The notes under the pieces were generated by a model. It worked only from the letters and a program-made list of their open reading frames with translations. It was not told where the DNA came from and did no database searches. The translations under genes were made by a program, and so were the position numbers. From contig JBILXZ010000003.1 of the NCBI GenBank assembly GCA_044378015.1, positions 17,931 to 81,930 on the forward strand: DNA of 64,000 bases, given 5' to 3'. Positions 34,349 to 48,819 of the stretch are shown piece by piece. Numbering within the stretch: position 1 is the stretch's first letter; every line of letters starts with the position of its first letter. The DNA comes from Tagaea sp. Its GTDB lineage: Bacteria; Pseudomonadota; Alphaproteobacteria; CACIAM-22H2.

Positions 34349-37300
34349 ATGGCTAGTTTGAAGCGACGCGCAATGGCGCTCGGCGCAGGGCTCGCGCTGT
34401 GCGCGATCCTGGGCGCCGCGACGGCGCTTGTGCTCGCGCGCGGCGAGGCGGCGGCGGTCGCCGTGCTCCGCGGTTCGGTTGCCAGCATCGCCGCGAACAC
34501 CGGCGTGCGCATCGACCGCGAATTGCTTCAGACCGAAACGCTTCTTGCCCGCGTGCCGCTGATACTGCGATCGCTCGACGGCGCGGCGCCCGAAACCGTC
34601 GTCAGCCGCGAGCTGTGGCTGTTCGCCGACCAGTCGACGCTGCTGCGCGACATCCTCGTTGTGGCGGCGGACGGCCGCGTGCTCGCGTCGGCCTTGCCCG
34701 CAGCAAGCCGCTTGCCGCCGGAAACTCTGGCCGCGCTGCTCGGCAGTCTCTATCGGGGTGCGGGCGAAACGGTGGCGATCGCTTTCCCGCAGCGCAACCG
34801 GACAACCGGCGAATGGGTCACGCTGATCGGCCGGACGGTCGAAATCCCGGGTGCAGGCGAAGTTCTGGCGGTCGGGGAGGTCGAAGTGCCCGTCCTCTCC
34901 GAGATGATCGCCGATCGCGGGCCGCTCGAACGGCGCATGGCGATCGAACTGCGCGATGGCCGCTTGATTGCCGCCTCGCCGCACGACGAAATCGGGATGG
35001 GGCTGGTGCGCCAGCCGCTTCCGGAAATTCTGCTCGCACCCGAGAGCCAGTCGCTGGTCGGTGCTCTGCGCGGCAGCGGCGCCGAAACCGCCGTCGCGGT
35101 TCGAACGCTGCACAATCGCGCTTTGGTGCTGGTCGCAACCCTCGACCTGCATGCGGGCTTGGCCGACTGGCGCGCCGAGCGCAACCGGATCGCGGTTGCC
35201 GCAGCCGCATTTGCGGCGCTGATCCTTTCGTTCGCGGCCTTTGCGCATCGCGCGCAGAAAATCCGCTTGCGTTTGATGGATCGCTTGGCGCTGCAGGTTG
35301 CCGTCGTCGAAAACGCCGGAGAGACGATCGTTGTCGCCGATCCGAACGGCTGCATTCTATGGGTCAATCCGGCGTTCGAACGCAGGACCGGCTACACGGC
35401 CGCCGAAGTCGTGGGCAAGCGTCCGGGTGCGTTTCTCCAGGGACCCGACACGGACCCCGCGGCGGTCGCAAGACTTCGCAGAGCGGTCGTAACGCAGCGC
35501 AATTGCGACGTCGAAATCCTCAACTACGCAAAATCGGGCGAGAGGTACTGGCAGCGCGTGCGGCTGGCGCCTGTTCGCGACAGTCTCGGCGAGCTCACGC
35601 ATTTCATTTCCGTCCAGACCGACGTGACGCGCGAGCGCGAGCAGCTCGCGAATCTGGCCGCAGCCAAGCTGGAAGCGGAGCGCAATCTGGCGGTCGCAAG
35701 CGTCGCGCACGGCCAGCTGCGCAACGCCATGGATGCCATGCGCGAGGGCCTGATGCTGCTCGACCGCGACGACCGTCTGCTCAAGTGGAATGCGCAGTTC
35801 GAGGCCAAGCTCGGCCTGCCGCCGGAATTCCTGCGCGAAGGCATGAGCCTGCTGGAGCTGACGCTGGGCGCCCTCGAGATCCGCGAACCGAAGCTGTCGC
35901 CTGCCCTCCGCGCCGGCAAAGCGGCCGCGCGCGTCGCCGTCCATCGCCAGCCGCACATGCGCGAGGAAGAGCTCTCGGTGCGCGGCCGAACGGTCGTGCT
36001 CCGGCGCACGCTGCTGCCGGACGGCGGAATAATGTACGTTTATCGCGACGTGACCGACGAACGGTTTGCGACCGAGCAGCTGCGACGCGCCAACGACGTG
36101 CTGCACGCGTCCGAGACGCGTCTTGCGCTGGCGCTCGAAACGGCGAATCTCGGCTGGTGGGAGCGTGCCGCCGACGGCCGCGTCGGTTGGAGCGCGCGGG
36201 CGCGCGAGATCTGGGGCATCGCGCCCGAAATCGTTCCGAGCGTCGAGGCGTGGCGCAGCTGCCTGCATCCCGACGACCGAGACACCGTCGACGATTCGCT
36301 GGAGCTTCCCGACGGCCGCCATGTGCGCAACTATCGCGTCGTCCACGCGGACGGCAGCGTGCGTTACGTGCGCTCGCAGCGCCTGATCACGCGCGAGAGC
36401 GGCGCTGGCGGCGTGGTGGCGCTGGGAACCGTTCTCGACTGCACCGACCTCGAAACGCTGCGGCAGGCGGCCGAGCGCGACCGCGAGACGCTGGCCAGCG
36501 CGATCAATGCGATGCGCGACGGCATTCTCCTCTACGATGCGGGCGAACGTCTCGTTTCGTGGAACGGCCGCATCGTCGAGATTTGCCCGTGGCTCGAAGG
36601 CGCCCTGGCGCCGGGGCTCGCCTATGCCCGCATCGTGCGCGCGGAACTCGAGCGCGCCGACGGAGACCGCACGCCCGCAGAGATCGAAGAGGCGGTCGCC
36701 GAGCGCCGCCGATCCTTCGCCGAAGACGACGGCAGGATGTTCGAGATCGCGATCGAGGGGCGCGTTCTGCATACGACGCGCATTCCGGTCGCCGCCGGCG
36801 GATCGCTCGGAATCGTGCGCGACGTGACCGAGCAGAAGGCCTACCAAGCCGAACTCGAAGAGGCGCGGCGCGCGGCCGAGGCTGCCAACGAAGCAAAGAC
36901 GCGCTTTCTCGCCAACATGAGCCACGAACTGCGCACGCCGCTCGCGGGCATCGTGTCGATGCTGGGCCTGCTCGACGAGGCCGCTCTCGACGAAGAGGGA
37001 CGGCGGCAGGTGTCCTACGCGCGCGGATCGGCCCAGCACCTGATCGGCGTGGTCGGCAACATTCTCGATCTGTCGAAGCTCGAGATTTCCGATATCGTCC
37101 TCAACCGCCACCCGTTCGATCTCGTCTTGCTGGTGAACGATTCGGTCCAGCCGCTCGGCGCGATGGCGCGCAGAAAAGGTCTCGAACTCGAAGTCGCGAT
37201 CGCGGAATCCGCGCGGGGCTTGCGTGTCGGCGACGCGGCGCGCATCCGCCAGATTCTGACCAATCTGGTCGGCAACGCGATCAAACTCACGGCGGTCGGC

Positions 37301-38389
37301 CGCGTGTCGGTCGCGATTTCGGCGGCGGGCGATTTCGTCACCTTCGCGGTGGCCGATATCGGACCGGGCATTGCGCGCGGCCAGCAGCATCGCCTGTTCG
37401 AGGATTTCGTCCAGATCGATTCGTCGAGCGCGCGGCGCCACGAAGGCGCGGGCCTGGGCCTCGCGATCAGCCGCCGTCTCGCGACCGCGATGGCAGGCGA
37501 CCTTGCGGTCGAAAGCGACGTCGGGCGCGGCGCGACGTTCCGCCTTGTGCTGCCGCTGCCGCCGTTTGCCGGGCCGTTGCCGGCCCTCGCCGAGCCGGCG
37601 GCGGCGCCCGCACCGCTCGACGGCATGTGGCTGCTGCTGGCCGAGGACAACGAAGTGAACCGCTACGGGATCGTGCGCATCCTCGAAGCGCTGGGCGCCA
37701 AGGTCGACGCGGTCGGCGACGGCGCCGCGGCGGTCGCGGCCGCCGCACGGCGCCGCTACGACGCGATTCTGATGGATGTCCAGATGACCGGCATCGACGG
37801 GCTTGAGGCCACGCGCGAAATCCGCGCCACCAGCGGCCCGAACGCGGGCACGCTGATCGTCGCATTGACGGCCAACGCCTTCACGGCCGACCGCAACGAG
37901 TGCCTGCGCGTCGGCATGGATCGGTTTCTGGCGAAGCCGGTCGATGCCGCCGATCTTTGCGAGGCCTTGGCCGATTCGGCGCGCGTGCGGGCTGCGCGTG
38001 CCGCGCCGCAAACGGCGCTGCCCGCCGCGGACCCCGCCTCGTGGATCGACCGCGTGCGCATCGGCAAACTGGAAGCTGACGGCGGCGCGGGGTTTGCCGA
38101 AAGCTTGATCGGGCGCTTCGCGTCGACCCTCGAATCCGAATTGCAGTCCCTCGACGGGGCTTTGGCGGCCGGCGATGTCGTCAAGGTCGCGGCGCTGGGC
38201 CATGCGCTCAAAAGCTCTTCGCGCATGGTCGGTGCGGCGGGCCTTGGCGAAGCCGCCGAGACGCTCGAACGCATCGCGTTCGACGCGGCACCCGAAACGC
38301 TGCGCGAAGCGATCGCCGCCTTCGGCCTGCGCGCGCGGCATTTCCGCGATTTCGCGGCCCGCTTTTTGGAGTCCGACAAAAAAAAGTGA
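34349..38389 (+). CDS. Unorthodox hybrid sensor histidine kinase (TM-periplasmic Cache-like-TM-4xPAS-HisKA-HATPase_c-REC-HPt)
   Basis: 1346 aa. Two TM segments flank a periplasmic domain of about 250 aa. HisKA H-box MSHELRTPL, then N/G boxes, then a receiver (LLLAEDNEVNRY…DVQMTGIDG), then a C-terminal HPt (GHALKSSSRMVGAAGL). Confidence 0.9.
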   Translation: MASLKRRAMALGAGLALCAILGAATALVLARGEAAAVAVLRGSVASIAANTGVRIDRELLQTETLLARVPLILRSLDGAAPETVVSRELWLFADQSTLLRDILVVAADGRVLASALPAASRLPPETLAALLGSLYRGAGETVAIAFPQRNRTTGEWVTLIGRTVEIPGAGEVLAVGEVEVPVLSEMIADRGPLERRMAIELRDGRLIAASPHDEIGMGLVRQPLPEILLAPESQSLVGALRGSGAETAVAVRTLHNRALVLVATLDLHAGLADWRAERNRIAVAAAAFAALILSFAAFAHRAQKIRLRLMDRLALQVAVVENAGETIVVADPNGCILWVNPAFERRTGYTAAEVVGKRPGAFLQGPDTDPAAVARLRRAVVTQRNCDVEILNYAKSGERYWQRVRLAPVRDSLGELTHFISVQTDVTREREQLANLAAAKLEAERNLAVASVAHGQLRNAMDAMREGLMLLDRDDRLLKWNAQFEAKLGLPPEFLREGMSLLELTLGALEIREPKLSPALRAGKAAARVAVHRQPHMREEELSVRGRTVVLRRTLLPDGGIMYVYRDVTDERFATEQLRRANDVLHASETRLALALETANLGWWERAADGRVGWSARAREIWGIAPEIVPSVEAWRSCLHPDDRDTVDDSLELPDGRHVRNYRVVHADGSVRYVRSQRLITRESGAGGVVALGTVLDCTDLETLRQAAERDRETLASAINAMRDGILLYDAGERLVSWNGRIVEICPWLEGALAPGLAYARIVRAELERADGDRTPAEIEEAVAERRRSFAEDDGRMFEIAIEGRVLHTTRIPVAAGGSLGIVRDVTEQKAYQAELEEARRAAEAANEAKTRFLANMSHELRTPLAGIVSMLGLLDEAALDEEGRRQVSYARGSAQHLIGVVGNILDLSKLEISDIVLNRHPFDLVLLVNDSVQPLGAMARRKGLELEVAIAESARGLRVGDAARIRQILTNLVGNAIKLTAVGRVSVAISAAGDFVTFAVADIGPGIARGQQHRLFEDFVQIDSSSARRHEGAGLGLAISRRLATAMAGDLAVESDVGRGATFRLVLPLPPFAGPLPALAEPAAAPAPLDGMWLLLAEDNEVNRYGIVRILEALGAKVDAVGDGAAAVAAAARRRYDAILMDVQMTGIDGLEATREIRATSGPNAGTLIVALTANAFTADRNECLRVGMDRFLAKPVDAADLCEALADSARVRAARAAPQTALPAADPASWIDRVRIGKLEADGGAGFAESLIGRFASTLESELQSLDGALAAGDVVKVAALGHALKSSSRMVGAAGLGEAAETLERIAFDAAPETLREAIAAFGLRARHFRDFAARFLESDKKK

Positions 38390-38461
38390 CGCGCGTGGAG
38401 CTGCACGACGCCGGGAGCCGGTGAGCGCGGTCGGGCCGAAGGCACGCGCCGGCTTCCTTTG

Positions 38462-45072: not shown

Positions 45073-45185
45073 GGGGGCCCGTTCCGCGCAGATCGGCGGC
45101 TTGAACCCCCTTGGGACCGGCCCCCGGCAGCCCTATATTGCGCGGCGATTCGTCCCCCCCAATCGGTTCGCCTCTCGGAGTTGCC

Positions 45186-46004
45186 ATGACCGACGCCGTT
45201 ACCGCCGCCGCATCCGACCGCAGCTTTCGCGCCCGTTTGCGCCAATGGGTCGAGTCCGAGCCCGTCCAGCGCGCGGTCATGGCTCTGATCGTGCTCAACG
45301 CGGTCACGCTGGGCCTCGAAACCTCGCGAACCGTCATGGAAGCCATCGGCGGTTTTCTGATGCTTCTCGACGCCGCCATTCTCGCGGTCTTCGCGGTCGA
45401 ACTCGCGCTGCGCATCGCGGCGCACGGGCTGCGCTTCTTCCGCGGCGGCTGGAACTGGTTCGACCTGATCGTCGTCGCGATCGCCCTCGTTCCGGCGTCG
45501 GGGCCGCTGTCGGTGCTGCGCGCGTTGCGCGTGCTGCGCGTGCTGCGGCTCGTGTCGATCGTGCCGTCGATGCGCTCGATCGTCGAAGCGCTGCTGCGCT
45601 CGCTGCCGGGCATGTCGGCGATCATGGCGCTGCTGCTGCTGGTGTTCTACGTGTTCGCGGTGATGGGCACGAAGCTGTTCGGCGAGACCCAGCCCGAGCA
45701 GTTCGGCACGCTGGGAGCGACGTTCCTCACGCTGTTCCAGCTGATGACGCTCGACGGCTGGTCGGGGGAAATCGTGAAACCGGCGCTGGAAGACCATCCG
45801 GCGGCGATGCTGTATTTCCTGCCCTTCATTCTGGTGTCGACGTTCGTGGTGCTGAACCTGTTCATCGCCCTCATCGTCGATTCGATGACGCGCCTGCACG
45901 CCGAGAGCGCCGCCGAGAAGCCCGATCCGCATGCGGCGCTCGCCCTCCAGGTCGAAGCGCTGGCAGGCGAAGTTCGCGCCTTGCGCGAGAAGCTGGCGGG
46001 CTGA
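45186..46004 (+). CDS. Bacterial voltage-gated ion channel, NaChBac/BacNav family (single 6-TM domain)
   Basis: The S4 segment has 4 Arg at every third position (LRALRVLRVLRLVS). The pore is TLFQLMTLDGWSG. The C-terminal neck and coiled-coil (ALALQVEALAGEVRALREKL) and overall collinearity match NaChBac. Confidence 0.85.
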   Translation: MTDAVTAAASDRSFRARLRQWVESEPVQRAVMALIVLNAVTLGLETSRTVMEAIGGFLMLLDAAILAVFAVELALRIAAHGLRFFRGGWNWFDLIVVAIALVPASGPLSVLRALRVLRVLRLVSIVPSMRSIVEALLRSLPGMSAIMALLLLVFYVFAVMGTKLFGETQPEQFGTLGATFLTLFQLMTLDGWSGEIVKPALEDHPAAMLYFLPFILVSTFVVLNLFIALIVDSMTRLHAESAAEKPDPHAALALQVEALAGEVRALREKLAG

Positions 46005-46029: not shown

Positions 46030-46389
46030 TCACAATTCGTGGTTCATGTTGGCGATGAACGTGCCGACGCCGTTCGCGCGGCCGTCCGCCGCCAGGATCC
46101 GGTGCGAGACGTCGACGATCCAGCTGTCGGTCTGGCGCCCGCGGCCCGCGTCCGTCCGGGCCGCGAAACAGTCGCGCTCGGCGACTTTGACGGCTGGCAA
46201 CAGCAGTCTGCGCGTGCCGTCGGGACCGCAGAGACAAAAGCGGAAGACCTGGGTGAGGCTGCCCACCGCCCCGCGCTCGATCTCGGCGACGCGGAAGGCA
46301 GCGTCCGCGTTGCGGATCCAGTTTGCCGCGAACAGCATCGCAAGTGCGAAGACGGCGACGATCGCAAATGGCCAGGCGGCGGAACGCAT
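46030..46389 (-). CDS. Hypothetical membrane-anchored protein (119 aa)
   Basis: Has a single N-terminal TM segment (WPFAIVAVFALAMLFAANW) and GC3 typical of this genome. No family was recognised. Confidence 0.45.
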   Translation of the reverse strand: MRSAAWPFAIVAVFALAMLFAANWIRNADAAFRVAEIERGAVGSLTQVFRFCLCGPDGTRRLLLPAVKVAERDCFAARTDAGRGRQTDSWIVDVSHRILAADGRANGVGTFIANMNHEL

Positions 46390-46521: not shown

Positions 46522-48819
46522 TTGTCCGCGGCCGTTCGGCTAAACGAAAAGCATGCGCGTCTGAGGCAAAGCCGCGCCGATCTTCGGGGTGTCTTTCGCT
46601 TGGCCGATTCGTCCGTTTCATCCGCTGCGCCGTCGCCGCCCGCGCAGATCGGCCGCGCGCAGGCGCTGCATCGGCGTCCCGTCACCTACCTGCTTTTGGG
46701 CTTGGTTCTGTCGCTCGCGCTGGCGGCGCTTGCAACGCTCGAGCGCCGCACCGACGTCGAGACGCGCTTTGCGATCCAAACCGAGCGGTTCGTCGCGGCG
46801 CTTGCGAGCCATCTCCGCGTCTACGAGACAGCCTTGTCCGGCGGGGCAGCGCTTTTCGCCGCCTCCGGGGAAATCACGCGGGCCGAATGGGCCGTCTATG
46901 TCGCCGCCACGCGCGTGCGCGAAACGCTGCCGGGCAACCAGGCGTTCGGTTTTGCCCCCTTCGTGCCGGACGCGGCGCGCGAAGCGCATGCGGCGGCCTT
47001 GCGCGCCGAGGCGGGACCCGACTACGAGATCAGGCCGCCGGGTCCGCGCCCCGTCCACGTACCGATCATGTTCAACGAGCCTTATGTCGGCCGCAACCGC
47101 AGCGTCGTCGGGTTCGACATGTATTCCGAGCCGACGCGCCGTGCCGCGATCGACGCGGCGATCGCGGCACGGCGGCCCACAATGTCGGGCAAAGTCGTGC
47201 TGGCGGGCGAGCAGGGCGACGCGCAGCCGCCGGGATTCGTCGTCTACGCGCCGGTCTTCAAGGGTGCCGCGCCCCAACCGCTGGGTTTCGTTTTCGCGCC
47301 GTTCCGCATGCCCGATCTGATGGCCGGGCTTCAGCGCAGCTGGGATTCGGGCCTCGCTTTCCGCATCTACGACGGCACGCAGAAAACCGAAGCCGCCTTG
47401 ATGCACGCGGCATGGCCGCAGAGCCTCGCCGCGCCGCGCAACGCGCGCGACGTCGCGTTCCAGGCATTGGGGCGCAGCTGGACCGTCGAATTCGGCGCCG
47501 GGCAAAGCTTCGAGCGCAACGACGAGATATGGGCGCCGTGGCTGGTGCTGGCCCTCGGCTTCGCGGCGAGCCTGCTGGTCTTCGCCCAGGCGCGCGCCAT
47601 CGCGAAGATCCAGGCCAGCGCCCAAGCGCTCGCGGACGCCAAAAACGCGTCGGAAGCGGCAAGCCTCGCCAAATCCAGTTTCGTGGCGACCGTGAGCCAC
47701 GAGATCCGCACGCCGATGAACGGCATCATGGGCATTTCCGGGCTGCTGCTCGACACGCCGCTCGACTCCAACCAGCGCGAGCTGGCCGTCGCCATCCGCG
47801 ATTCGAGCGAAAGCCTGCTGCTGATCGTCAACGACGTGCTCGATCTCTCGAAGCTCAACGCCGACCGGCTCGAGTTCGAGCAGATCGCTTTCGACCTTCG
47901 CCAATGCGTGCGCGGCGCTCTCGAGGTCGTGCGCCCGCGCGCCGACGCCAAGGGTCTGGCGCTCGAATTCGAAGCCGATCCGAGCCTGCCCGTCGCGGTC
48001 ACGGGCGATCCGGGCCGCCTGCGCCAGATCGCCCTCAATCTCGTGTCGAACGCCGTGAAGTTCACGGAAACCGGATCGGTGCGCGTCGAGCTGGGCATCG
48101 ACGGCGGGGCCGTCGCCGTCGAAGGCCGCGTCGCGCTGTGCATTGCGGTCAGCGACACGGGCATCGGCATAGCGCCGGCCTATCTGCCCAACGTGTTCGA
48201 AGAGTTCGTGCAGGGCGATGCGTCCGTCGCGCGGCGTTTCGGCGGCACGGGTCTCGGGCTCGCGATCGTGCGCCGTCTTGCCGAGCGGATGGGCGGAACC
48301 GTGCAGGCCGCCAGCACCCTCGGGCGCGGCAGCCGCTTCGAGGTGCGCCTGTCGCTGCCCGTCGCCGCCAGTGCCGCCCGCAAGCGCGAGAACCTGGCGC
48401 TGACCGGCGCCATCGCGCGGCTCGAAGAAGCCGCCGAAGCGCTGGGCCGCCCGATCCGCCTGCTGCTGGCCGAAGACAACGCGACCAACCGCCTCGTCGC
48501 GATCGAGATGCTGAAGCCCTATCCCGTGCGCGTCGACGCGGCGGCAAACGGGCTCGAAGCGGTCGAGGCGGTGCGCACGGCGCCCTACGATCTCGTGCTG
48601 ATGGACGTGAACATGCCCGAGATGGACGGTCTCGACGCCACGCGCGCCATCCGCACGCTGCCGGGCGACGCCGGCCGCGTGCCGATCGTCGCGGTGACGG
48701 CGGGCGCGTTCGACGACGACCGCGCGCGGTCGTTCGCCGTCGGCATGAACGGCTATCTCGCCAAGCCGTTCCGCAAAGCGGCGTTGTTCGAGGAAATCGC
48801 CAACGCCTTGCTGCTCTAG
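46522..48819 (+). CDS. CHASE-domain hybrid sensor histidine kinase/response regulator
   Basis: Has an extracytoplasmic CHASE domain (…[27 protein letters not shown]…) between two TM segments, then HisKA ([11 protein letters not shown]), HATPase_c and a receiver ([11 protein letters not shown]…DVNMPEMDG). The start is a non-ATG (TTG), so it is uncertain. Confidence 0.85.

Follow-up and report, generated by a model that had tools for sequence, protein, structure and literature searches.

The DNA analyzed here is a stretch of 64,000 nucleotides from Tagaea sp. (GenBank assembly GCA_044378015.1, contig JBILXZ010000003.1), hereafter called the window, and all positions are given in its coordinates. 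On the forward strand, it contains a gene (position 45186..46004) which ends in a stop codon and encodes a 272 aa ion channel. The channel was attributed to the NavAb-like lineage of the bacterial voltage-gated sodium channels (BacNav) using its translation, Pfam, BLASTP and AlphaFold 2 (AF2). The Pfam search revealed a single six-helix domain, Ion_trans (PF00520; residues 29-240, E=3.5e-45). There were 7464 homologues at E<=1e-10, and the search against PDB sequences returned chains of NavAb, CavAb and NavMs with E about 1e-68; eukaryotic four-domain channels outscored NavAb in this search solely because the scores of their four domains are summed. NCBIfam has no specific model for this channel and gave a sub-threshold TRP match only. 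According to BLASTP, the protein is 46% identical to NavAb (E=9e-84) and aligns with it without gaps over residues 17-236, from S1 to S6, which fixes the register between the two proteins at a constant +13. The collinearity with NavAb that was proposed in a preliminary description of the locus, made from the sequence alone, is thus borne out. Modeling using AF2 on an alignment of 84 sequences led to a model with a mean pLDDT of 88.8. The top 50 Foldseek matches of this monomer model in the PDB were solely NavAb, CavAb and NavMs (target-normalized TM-score up to 0.93, rmsd 1.5-2.0 Å), with CavAb as the best structural match.

The voltage-sensor domain S1-S4 occupies residues about 25-125 (45258..45560, forward strand, as for the other parts of the channel below), with AF2 helices at residues 25-45, 48-86, 88-101 and 106-125. 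The S4 segment GPLSVLRALRVLRVLRLVSI (45501..45560) carries the gating arginines R112, R115, R118 and R121 at every third residue; they correspond to NavAb R99, R102, R105 and R108, and all four are invariant in the 84 homologues, as are the charge-transfer phenylalanine F69 and the acidic counter-charges E72 and D93. The wider set N38, E45, D62, F69, E72 and D93, equivalent to NavAb N25, E32, N49, F56, E59 and D80, is invariant or nearly so. The pore module (residues 140-236, 45603..45893) was modeled as helices S5 (140-165), P1 (176-187), P2 (192-203) and S6 plus neck (208-244), with a four-residue filter turn; in S6, residues T219, N224 (NavAb N211) and I230 are conserved. After a PDP break, the monomer model contains a separate C-terminal helix of about three heptads (residues 248-271, 45927..45998), which is presumed to form a four-helix coiled coil. 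The last 24 residues, PHAALALQVEALAGEVRALREKLA, place the hydrophobic residues L-V-L-V-L-L at a spacing of 4-3-4-3-4, and L259, E262 and R267 are nearly invariant. The four-arginine S4, the pore helix (P1 and P2 in the AF2 model) and the C-terminal coiled-coil segment listed in the preliminary description were therefore all found, the bundle itself being presumed. We regard it as almost certain that the protein is a subunit of a homotetrameric depolarization-activated cation channel of the NavAb-like branch of BacNav. Since the gating machinery looks fully canonical, activation by voltage can be predicted with high confidence.

It was also considered whether the gene could be a decayed, non-conducting relic or an artefact of gene prediction. 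The region is GC-rich and contains many overlapping spurious ORFs in all frames, and several engineered filter mutants of NavMs are non-functional (PMC4972137). The strand opposite to the channel ORF contains, in the same frame, a stop-free low-complexity string rich in Arg, His and Gln, for which no support as a gene was found. Against such an explanation stand the intact frame with its 7464 homologues, the confident fold prediction, the 38 columns that are invariant over 84 sequences and include every gating charge, and a 14-residue P-loop that is unchanged across two bacterial orders (see below). In addition, the exact 272 aa protein is present on 43 contigs, and this form is the gene call in four independent metagenome assemblies. 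A relic or artefact is consequently very improbable and, judged by the conservation, can be taken as effectively refuted.

The selectivity filter is the octad T188-L189-D190-G191-W192-S193-G194-E195 (45747..45770), as determined from the translation and the ungapped alignment with NavAb. It aligns to T175-L176-E177-S178-W179-S180-M181-G182 of NavAb (TLESWSMG), with T, L and W kept and four changes, namely Glu177 to Asp190, Ser178 to Gly191, Met181 to Gly194 and Gly182 to Glu195. The first two changes had been recognized in the preliminary description, where the filter was given as TLDGWSG and a misalignment of the Asp-Gly pair was named as a possible objection. Such a misalignment was ruled out by the ungapped BLASTP core and by a MAFFT alignment of 224 sequences, in which T, L, D/E, G/S and W each fall into a single column; no room is left for shifting Asp190 and Gly191. 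The changes of Met181 and Gly182, the invariance of the filter throughout its clade and the natural precedents for single changes had been overlooked. These precedents carry one change each (Asp3 in NsvBa, Gly4 in CavMr), and the diatom EukCatA has TLDGW.

The outer end of the filter depends on the alignment used. In the MAFFT alignment, the NavAb-like and Bacillus channels are one residue longer at this point than the AnclNav, EukCatA, TLEGWPD and TLDDWAN channels. Glu195 shares a column with the outer Asp or Asn of the shorter filters, including Asp7 of CavMr, NavPp and EukCatA, and Gly194 is the extra residue. Filter position 7 is then Gly194 in the NavAb register, while in the MAFFT register Glu195 stands opposite Asp7 of CavMr. 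Judging from this column, Glu195 may be a functional counterpart of CavMr Asp7, although the D7M mutant indicates that CavMr can do without this residue.

In order to describe the spread of the filter, the heptads of the best 120 of the 7464 homologues were counted. TLDGWSG and TLESWSM occurred 25 times each, TLEGWPD and TLDDWAN 22 times each, TLEGWSG 11 times, TLESWTT five times and TLDGWVG three times, and seven other heptads were found once each. A scan of species-representative genomes yielded 80 loci with TLDGWSG-E (18), TLESWSM-G (57), TLEGWSD (3), TLEGWPD (1) and TLDGWST (1). An exhaustive search of representative sequences returned mostly eukaryotic four-domain channels, whose scores are summed over four domains; it yielded only 27 proteins of less than 800 aa and thus added little to the census. 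The homologues and the genome scan together provided 44 TLDGWSGE proteins, 52% to 99.6% identical to the window protein. In these 44 proteins, the 14 residues TLFQLMTLDGWSGE (residues 182-195) are 100% invariant and the flanks vary freely. The invariance of this segment at overall identities down to 52% points to strong purifying selection on the exact filter. A sequencing error or a private mutation was ruled out, since 43 other proteins and 18 species genomes carry the same octad. As a separate observation, P0001, the representative of the 90% cluster, has YVFAGMG in S5 where the window protein reads YVFAVMG, the difference lying at residue 159; this Gly may be an assembly error, because every other sequence in the alignment of 84 keeps V159.

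The census contradicts a published statement according to which canonical BacNavs lack Gly4, as Gly4 is common in the NavAb-like group. Besides the TLDGWSGE channels, two more large Gly4 types were found in this group, namely TLEGWPD (22 sequences in a clade with 96% support; among them P0031, P0033 and P0036) and TLEGWSG-D (11 sequences; among them P0025, P0026, P0027 and P0032). The supplementary dataset of Shimomura et al. (PMC7041947) already holds NavAb-like Gly4 sequences, for example TLEGWAD of Tabrizicola, so that this diversity is visible in public data, yet it has been neither described nor characterized. The literature search found no paper containing TLDGWSG, TLEGWSG, TLDDWAN or TLEGWPD, and TLDGW occurred in one unrelated paper. 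An acid at position 8 within the pattern W-x-[GS]-[DE] recurs in TLDGWSG-E, TLEGWSG-D, TLDGWVG-E and TLEGWPS-D. A further 23 natural NavAb-like channels with TLDDWAN or TLDDWVN (for example, P0035, P0038, P0044, P0052, P0056, P0062, P0066 and P0120) form one clade with 89.5% bootstrap support, and their members come from, among others, Acetobacteraceae bacterium and Roseococcus sp. DSY-14. Their filter is nearly that of the engineered Ca2+-selective CaChBac and CavAb, TLDDW(S/A)D, and by this resemblance these proteins look like natural, seemingly uncharacterized "CavAb-like" channels.

To evaluate the phylogenetic position of the channel, neighbor-joining trees (200 and 100 bootstraps) were constructed from 208 core columns, with reference sequences that Shimomura et al. 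2020 provide as source data (PMC7041947). These distance-based trees were built on a biased sample and settle group membership, not the fine branching order. The window protein was placed inside the NavAb-like assemblage, in a TLDGWSGE clade of its own with 98-98.5% bootstrap support (22 sequences; 26 with the genome loci). A second TLDGWSGE group comprised 16 Caulobacterales sequences with 74-88% support. The joint clade of both groups had a support of at most 29% and vanished once the filter columns were masked; the trees give no decision between one origin of the filter and two, in Rhodospirillales and in Caulobacterales.

Membership of three other groups was rejected. CavMr, NavPp and three other AnclNavs formed a separate clade (91.5%) which does not include the window protein and joins NaChBac and NsvBa at 87%. 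NsvBa clusters with NaChBac, apart from the window protein, and the outer filter W-S-G-E of the latter differs from W-G-S-G of NsvBa. The diatom EukCatA channels formed a 100% clade on the AnclNav/Bacillus side without any bacterial sequence, and this separate clade, together with 37% identity, rules out a horizontal origin shared with them. The heptad that occurs in both is convergent, given the separate position of EukCatA.

The carriers of the filter are Rhodospirillales metagenome-assembled genomes (MAGs) and Caulobacterales, with cultured lake isolates among them. The nearest genomes are MAGs labeled Telmatospirillum sp. (90%), pond Rhodospirillaceae bacterium (88%), "Asaia bogorensis" (78%) and Azospirillum sp. 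(77%). The TLESWSM loci of the same genome scan belong mostly to Roseibium, Stappia, Labrenzia, Pelagibacterium and Maritimibacter, which we take to be marine or saline genera. Among the Caulobacterales, the filter was found in the eutrophic-lake bacterium Aquidulcibacter paucihalophilus TH1-2 (PMC5712168), in the isolates MiH-15 and RH-10 of Caulobacteraceae, in Hyphomonadaceae bacterium UKL13-1, which has a complete genome (CP012156), and in MAGs named after ponds, a river survey and glacier-fed streams. The fixation of TLDGWSGE in alphaproteobacteria of lakes, ponds and rivers, as against TLESWSM in their marine relatives, suggests tuning of the filter to low-Na+ water.

Published permeability data allow the effect of the filter changes to be predicted. 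At position 3, the high-field-strength (HFS) site, the mutation E178D in NavMs (LDSWSM) led to PCa/PNa of 0.5, PK/PNa of 0.4 and PBa/PNa of 0.3 (wild type <0.2), halved the unitary conductance and removed the outermost Na+ site from the crystal (PMC4972137). NsvBa (TLDSWGSG) is naturally non-selective; D186E alone brings Na+ selectivity back and abolishes its Ca2+ and Ba2+ currents, and NaChBac E192D:A195G becomes NsvBa-like (PMC4225499). At position 7, NavAb M181A showed PCa/PNa of 0.36 compared with <0.05 in the parent, and NavAb S178G/M181A showed PCa/PNa of 0.47 and PLi/PNa of about 1, which the authors read as loss of divalent exclusion (PMC12919392). Characterized diatom EukCatA channels, OsEUKCATA1 (TLDAWAD) among them, conduct Na+ as well as Ca2+ (PMC6509283). 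In the closest scaffolds, three of the four changes thus weaken Na+ selectivity, and no single one makes a channel highly Ca2+-selective; for this reason, a Ca2+-permeable, weakly selective, voltage-gated channel was ranked first among the readings considered. By analogy with these channels, we give this reading an approximately even chance.

The mechanism would be as follows. The shorter Asp190 ring at the HFS site would remove the outermost Na+ site; Gly191, just above this ring, would take away the first water-exchange hydroxyl and widen the mouth; the loss of the Met181 side chain at Gly194 would eliminate a divalent-excluding element; and Glu195 would add an outer ring of four negative charges. 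With these changes combined, strict Na+ selectivity would be lost and the pore would conduct Ca2+ in addition to Na+, perhaps together with K+ or Li+, at a PCa/PNa of roughly 0.3-30. The channel would then serve as a voltage-gated pathway of Ca2+ entry or depolarization.

Position 4 has been studied in the canonical scaffolds with a different outcome. In NavAb S178G, PCa/PNa, PK/PNa and PCs/PNa were all <0.05 and only PLi/PNa was raised, up to 2.18 (PMC12919392), and PCa/PNa of NaChBac LEGWAS was unchanged at 0.15 (PMC2229573). These values would fit an essentially Na+-selective (or Na+/Li+) BacNav in which the filter changes compensate for one another or tune conductance or gating. NavPp, moreover, is Na+-selective despite three acidic filter residues, which makes filter charge alone a poor predictor, and every database source names the protein a "voltage-gated sodium channel" or "ion transporter", although these names are automatic. 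Yet in all scaffolds tested, Asp at the HFS site made the channel less selective (NavMs E178D, NsvBa, NaChBac E192D), and the removal of Met181 raised PCa/PNa of NavAb at least 7-fold. In fresh water poor in Na+, the apparent habitat of the clade, a strict Na+ channel would also bring little benefit. An essentially Na+-selective channel therefore seems unlikely to us, though it deserves to be kept in mind.

Gly4 plays another part in the AnclNav channels. Wild-type CavMr (TLEGWVD) has PCa/PNa of 218, which drops to 11.9 in G4S, so that Gly4 is essential for its Ca2+ selectivity, and NavPp-D4G gains Ca2+ selectivity (PCa/PNa of 41) (PMC7041947). According to the "beacon" rule, a one-domain channel is Ca2+-selective if it has Gly at HFS+1, with either Glu (as in CavMr) or Asp (as in CatSper2/3/4) at the HFS site itself (PMC10120453). 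Hence, the window protein could be a highly Ca2+-selective native prokaryotic voltage-gated calcium channel (CaV; PCa/PNa >100) of the CavMr kind, in which Gly4 would widen the mouth, the acid at position 3 would bind Ca2+ and Glu195 would take the role of Asp7. The MAFFT column that Glu195 shares with Asp7 of CavMr, NavPp and EukCatA agrees with this, the filter would carry a net charge of -8 per tetramer, the same as in CavMr, and CavMr-D7M still shows PCa/PNa of 144 (PMC7041947). On the other hand, in both canonical BacNav scaffolds tested, Gly4 came without Ca2+ permeability, and the "beacon" rule is contradicted in the scaffold of the window protein itself by the PCa/PNa of <0.05 in NavAb S178G. 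Asp3 resulted in non-selectivity and not in Ca2+ selectivity in NavMs and NsvBa. CavMr also requires Val6 (PCa/PNa falls to 40 in V6T; PMC7041947), a position at which the window protein has Ser. In addition, the window protein is NavAb-like and not an AnclNav, and it lacks the long Cys-containing P2-S6 loop of CavMr. A highly Ca2+-selective channel is thus a possible but rather doubtful assignment. A broader proposal, on which we place similarly little weight, is that the TLDGWSGE clade represents a second, independent origin of native Ca2+-selective voltage-gated channels in bacteria, which would have arisen inside the crystallizable NavAb-like lineage, not in AnclNav, and been fixed in freshwater alphaproteobacteria since the inward charge carrier that can be used there would be Ca2+ rather than Na+.

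Several points weigh against the weakly selective, Ca2+-permeable channel as well. Gly4 alone leaves NavAb and NaChBac Na+-selective, so that the effects of filter residues depend on context and need not add. In NavMs, positions 6 and 7 of the filter accept few substitutions, and five such mutants gave no current (PMC4972137), which makes the step from single mutants to a natural combination of four residues a risky extrapolation. The role of Glu195 is suggested by the alignment, and the structural model is a monomer and not a tetramer. The split between fresh and marine waters was deduced from record titles and knowledge of the genera rather than from sample metadata or a statistical test, and the literature search found no current recorded from any TLDGWSG channel. 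The preliminary description had argued that engineered Asp filters shift selectivity toward Ca2+, which holds for NaChBac (PCa/PNa of 35 for LEDWAS and 133 for LDDWAD; PMC2229573); the inference is less direct than was implied there, because Gly4 alone gives neither NavAb nor NaChBac Ca2+ permeability. As a whole, its observation was confirmed, and its interpretation is supported by the structure, the register and the engineered Asp precedent.

Upstream of the channel ATG (45186), a candidate sigma-70-like promoter TTGGGA-17 nt-TATATT was recognized by consensus match (45111..45139, forward strand), 47 nt upstream of the ATG; the consensus scan found one such site versus 0.1 expected in shuffled sequences. 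A Shine-Dalgarno-like motif GGAG (45177..45180, forward strand), read from the sequence, is separated from the ATG by 5 nt (45181-45185). A longer ORF starting at TTG 45111 is improbable, because this TTG belongs to the -35 hexamer and GGAG precedes the ATG.

The window neighbors of the channel gene, like the closest genomes, are alphaproteobacterial. The channel gene lies in an ordinary chromosomal setting, with genes for an EamA transporter and, on the opposite strand, a methyltransferase located upstream. An EamA gene adjoins the channel gene in one other genome locus (L008), with a weak match in L036, and the methyltransferase gene and a 119 aa ORF (orf119) were found beside the channel gene in contigs of the same species only. 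About 500 nt downstream, there is a gene for a CHASE-domain hybrid histidine kinase (46522-48819, forward strand; domains CHASE, HisKA, HATPase_c and Response_reg). In four Caulobacterales and two TLESWSM loci, hybrid kinases are encoded 0.1-1 kb from the channel gene, with about 40% identity over the kinase-receiver part (matches at about 3700-4940 in L013, L026, L028 and L035, 6840-7964 in L016 and 1899-2993 in L021, all on the reverse strand). This proximity could be due to chance, given the abundance of kinases and the fact that the four Caulobacterales loci represent a single event. A conserved operon or functional neighborhood was rejected; EamA is limited to one other locus and a weak match, and for the kinase the numbers are too small to support a conclusion. 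Between the channel and kinase genes, orf119 (46030-46389, reverse strand) is called in three of four assemblies, and the fourth calls a 152 aa ORF on the forward strand in its place. The antisense orf119 had no Pfam match and no homologue outside contigs of the same species and, in DNA this rich in GC, is probably not a real gene. A gene for a large multi-PAS sensor kinase (1338 aa; about 35186-38390, forward strand; 1-3205 of L001) is located about 7 kb upstream of the channel gene. The kinase core of its product and that of the CHASE kinase share 40% identity (tblastn match at 36896-37978), so that two related hybrid kinases are encoded nearby. No second channel paralogue was found in the window using tblastn.

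BacNavs are the main structural models of sodium and calcium selectivity. The TLDGWSGE channel is an uncharacterized variant of this well-known family with a predicted function, and there is nothing categorically new in it. Its value lies in a conflict within the field: Gly4 is a key determinant of Ca2+ selectivity in CavMr, yet NavAb S178G prefers Li+ and excludes Ca2+. In the TLDGWSGE channels, nature has joined Gly4 with three other filter changes in a NavAb scaffold and held them invariant across two orders, which provides a natural and structurally tractable test of the residue combination that sets Na+/Ca2+ discrimination. If a second origin of Ca2+ selectivity did take place here, the ingredients missing from NavAb S178G would be Asp3, the loss of Met7 and Glu8. 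If the split between fresh and marine waters holds, it would be a clear case of channel selectivity tracking habitat chemistry and would suggest that abundant lake bacteria, including cultured ones, admit Ca2+ through a voltage-gated channel.

A comparison with known channels indicated that NavAb and NavMs have the same length and architecture as the window protein and belong to the same phylogenetic group, with shared gating charges, counter-charges and C-terminal helix. NavAb also shares Q185 (NavAb Q172), T188, W192 and the S6 Asn, but differs at four of the eight octad positions, including the Glu that defines Na+ selectivity, and NavAb R185 is replaced by K198. The closest engineered filter in the closest scaffold is that of LivAb-M181A (NavAb S178G/M181A, TLEGWSA), LivAb itself being S178G (TLEGWSM). 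None of the engineered NavAb filters unites Asp3, Gly4, Gly7 and Glu8, and CavAb (TLDDWSD-type) relies on Asp4, where the window protein has Gly.

The diatom EukCatA channels share the TLDGW core and have paralogues with TLDGWAD and TLDGWSG (TLDAWAD in OsEUKCATA1); EukCatA2 of Fragilariopsis cylindrus carries the identical heptad TLDGWSG within TLFQFMTLDGWSG. They differ in being eukaryotic, in their low identity (37%), in a P2 start that is one residue shorter and in having the final Gly in the Glu195 column. Note that the filter of PtEUKCATA1 is given as "TLE-WAD" by Helliwell et al. (PMC6509283), whereas the source data of Shimomura et al. (PMC7041947) list PtEuKatA1 with TLDGWAD and PtEuKatA2 with TLEWAD. 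The numbering of the paralogues seems to differ between the two papers, and the channel that was recorded may not be of the TLDGW type.

CavMr of Meiothermus ruber, the only characterized native prokaryotic CaV, resembles the window protein in Gly4 (Gly191), in the acidic position 3 and in a second acid after Trp. However, the two proteins are only 38% identical with 25 gap positions, CavMr belongs to the AnclNav clade, and it has Glu3, Val6 and the long Cys-bearing P2-S6 loop where the window protein has Asp3, Ser6 and no such loop. NsvBa of Bacillus alcalophilus, a natural non-selective BacNav, has the same Asp at position 3, and its non-selectivity has been interpreted as an adaptation to the ionic environment of the organism (PMC4225499). 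Unlike the window protein, which has Gly at positions 4 and 7, NsvBa belongs to the Bacillus group, keeps Ser4, has an extra Gly at position 6 (GxG) and lacks Glu8. By analogy with all these systems, the channel of the window would work most like NsvBa and NavMs-E178D or NavAb S178G/M181A, and less probably like CavMr.

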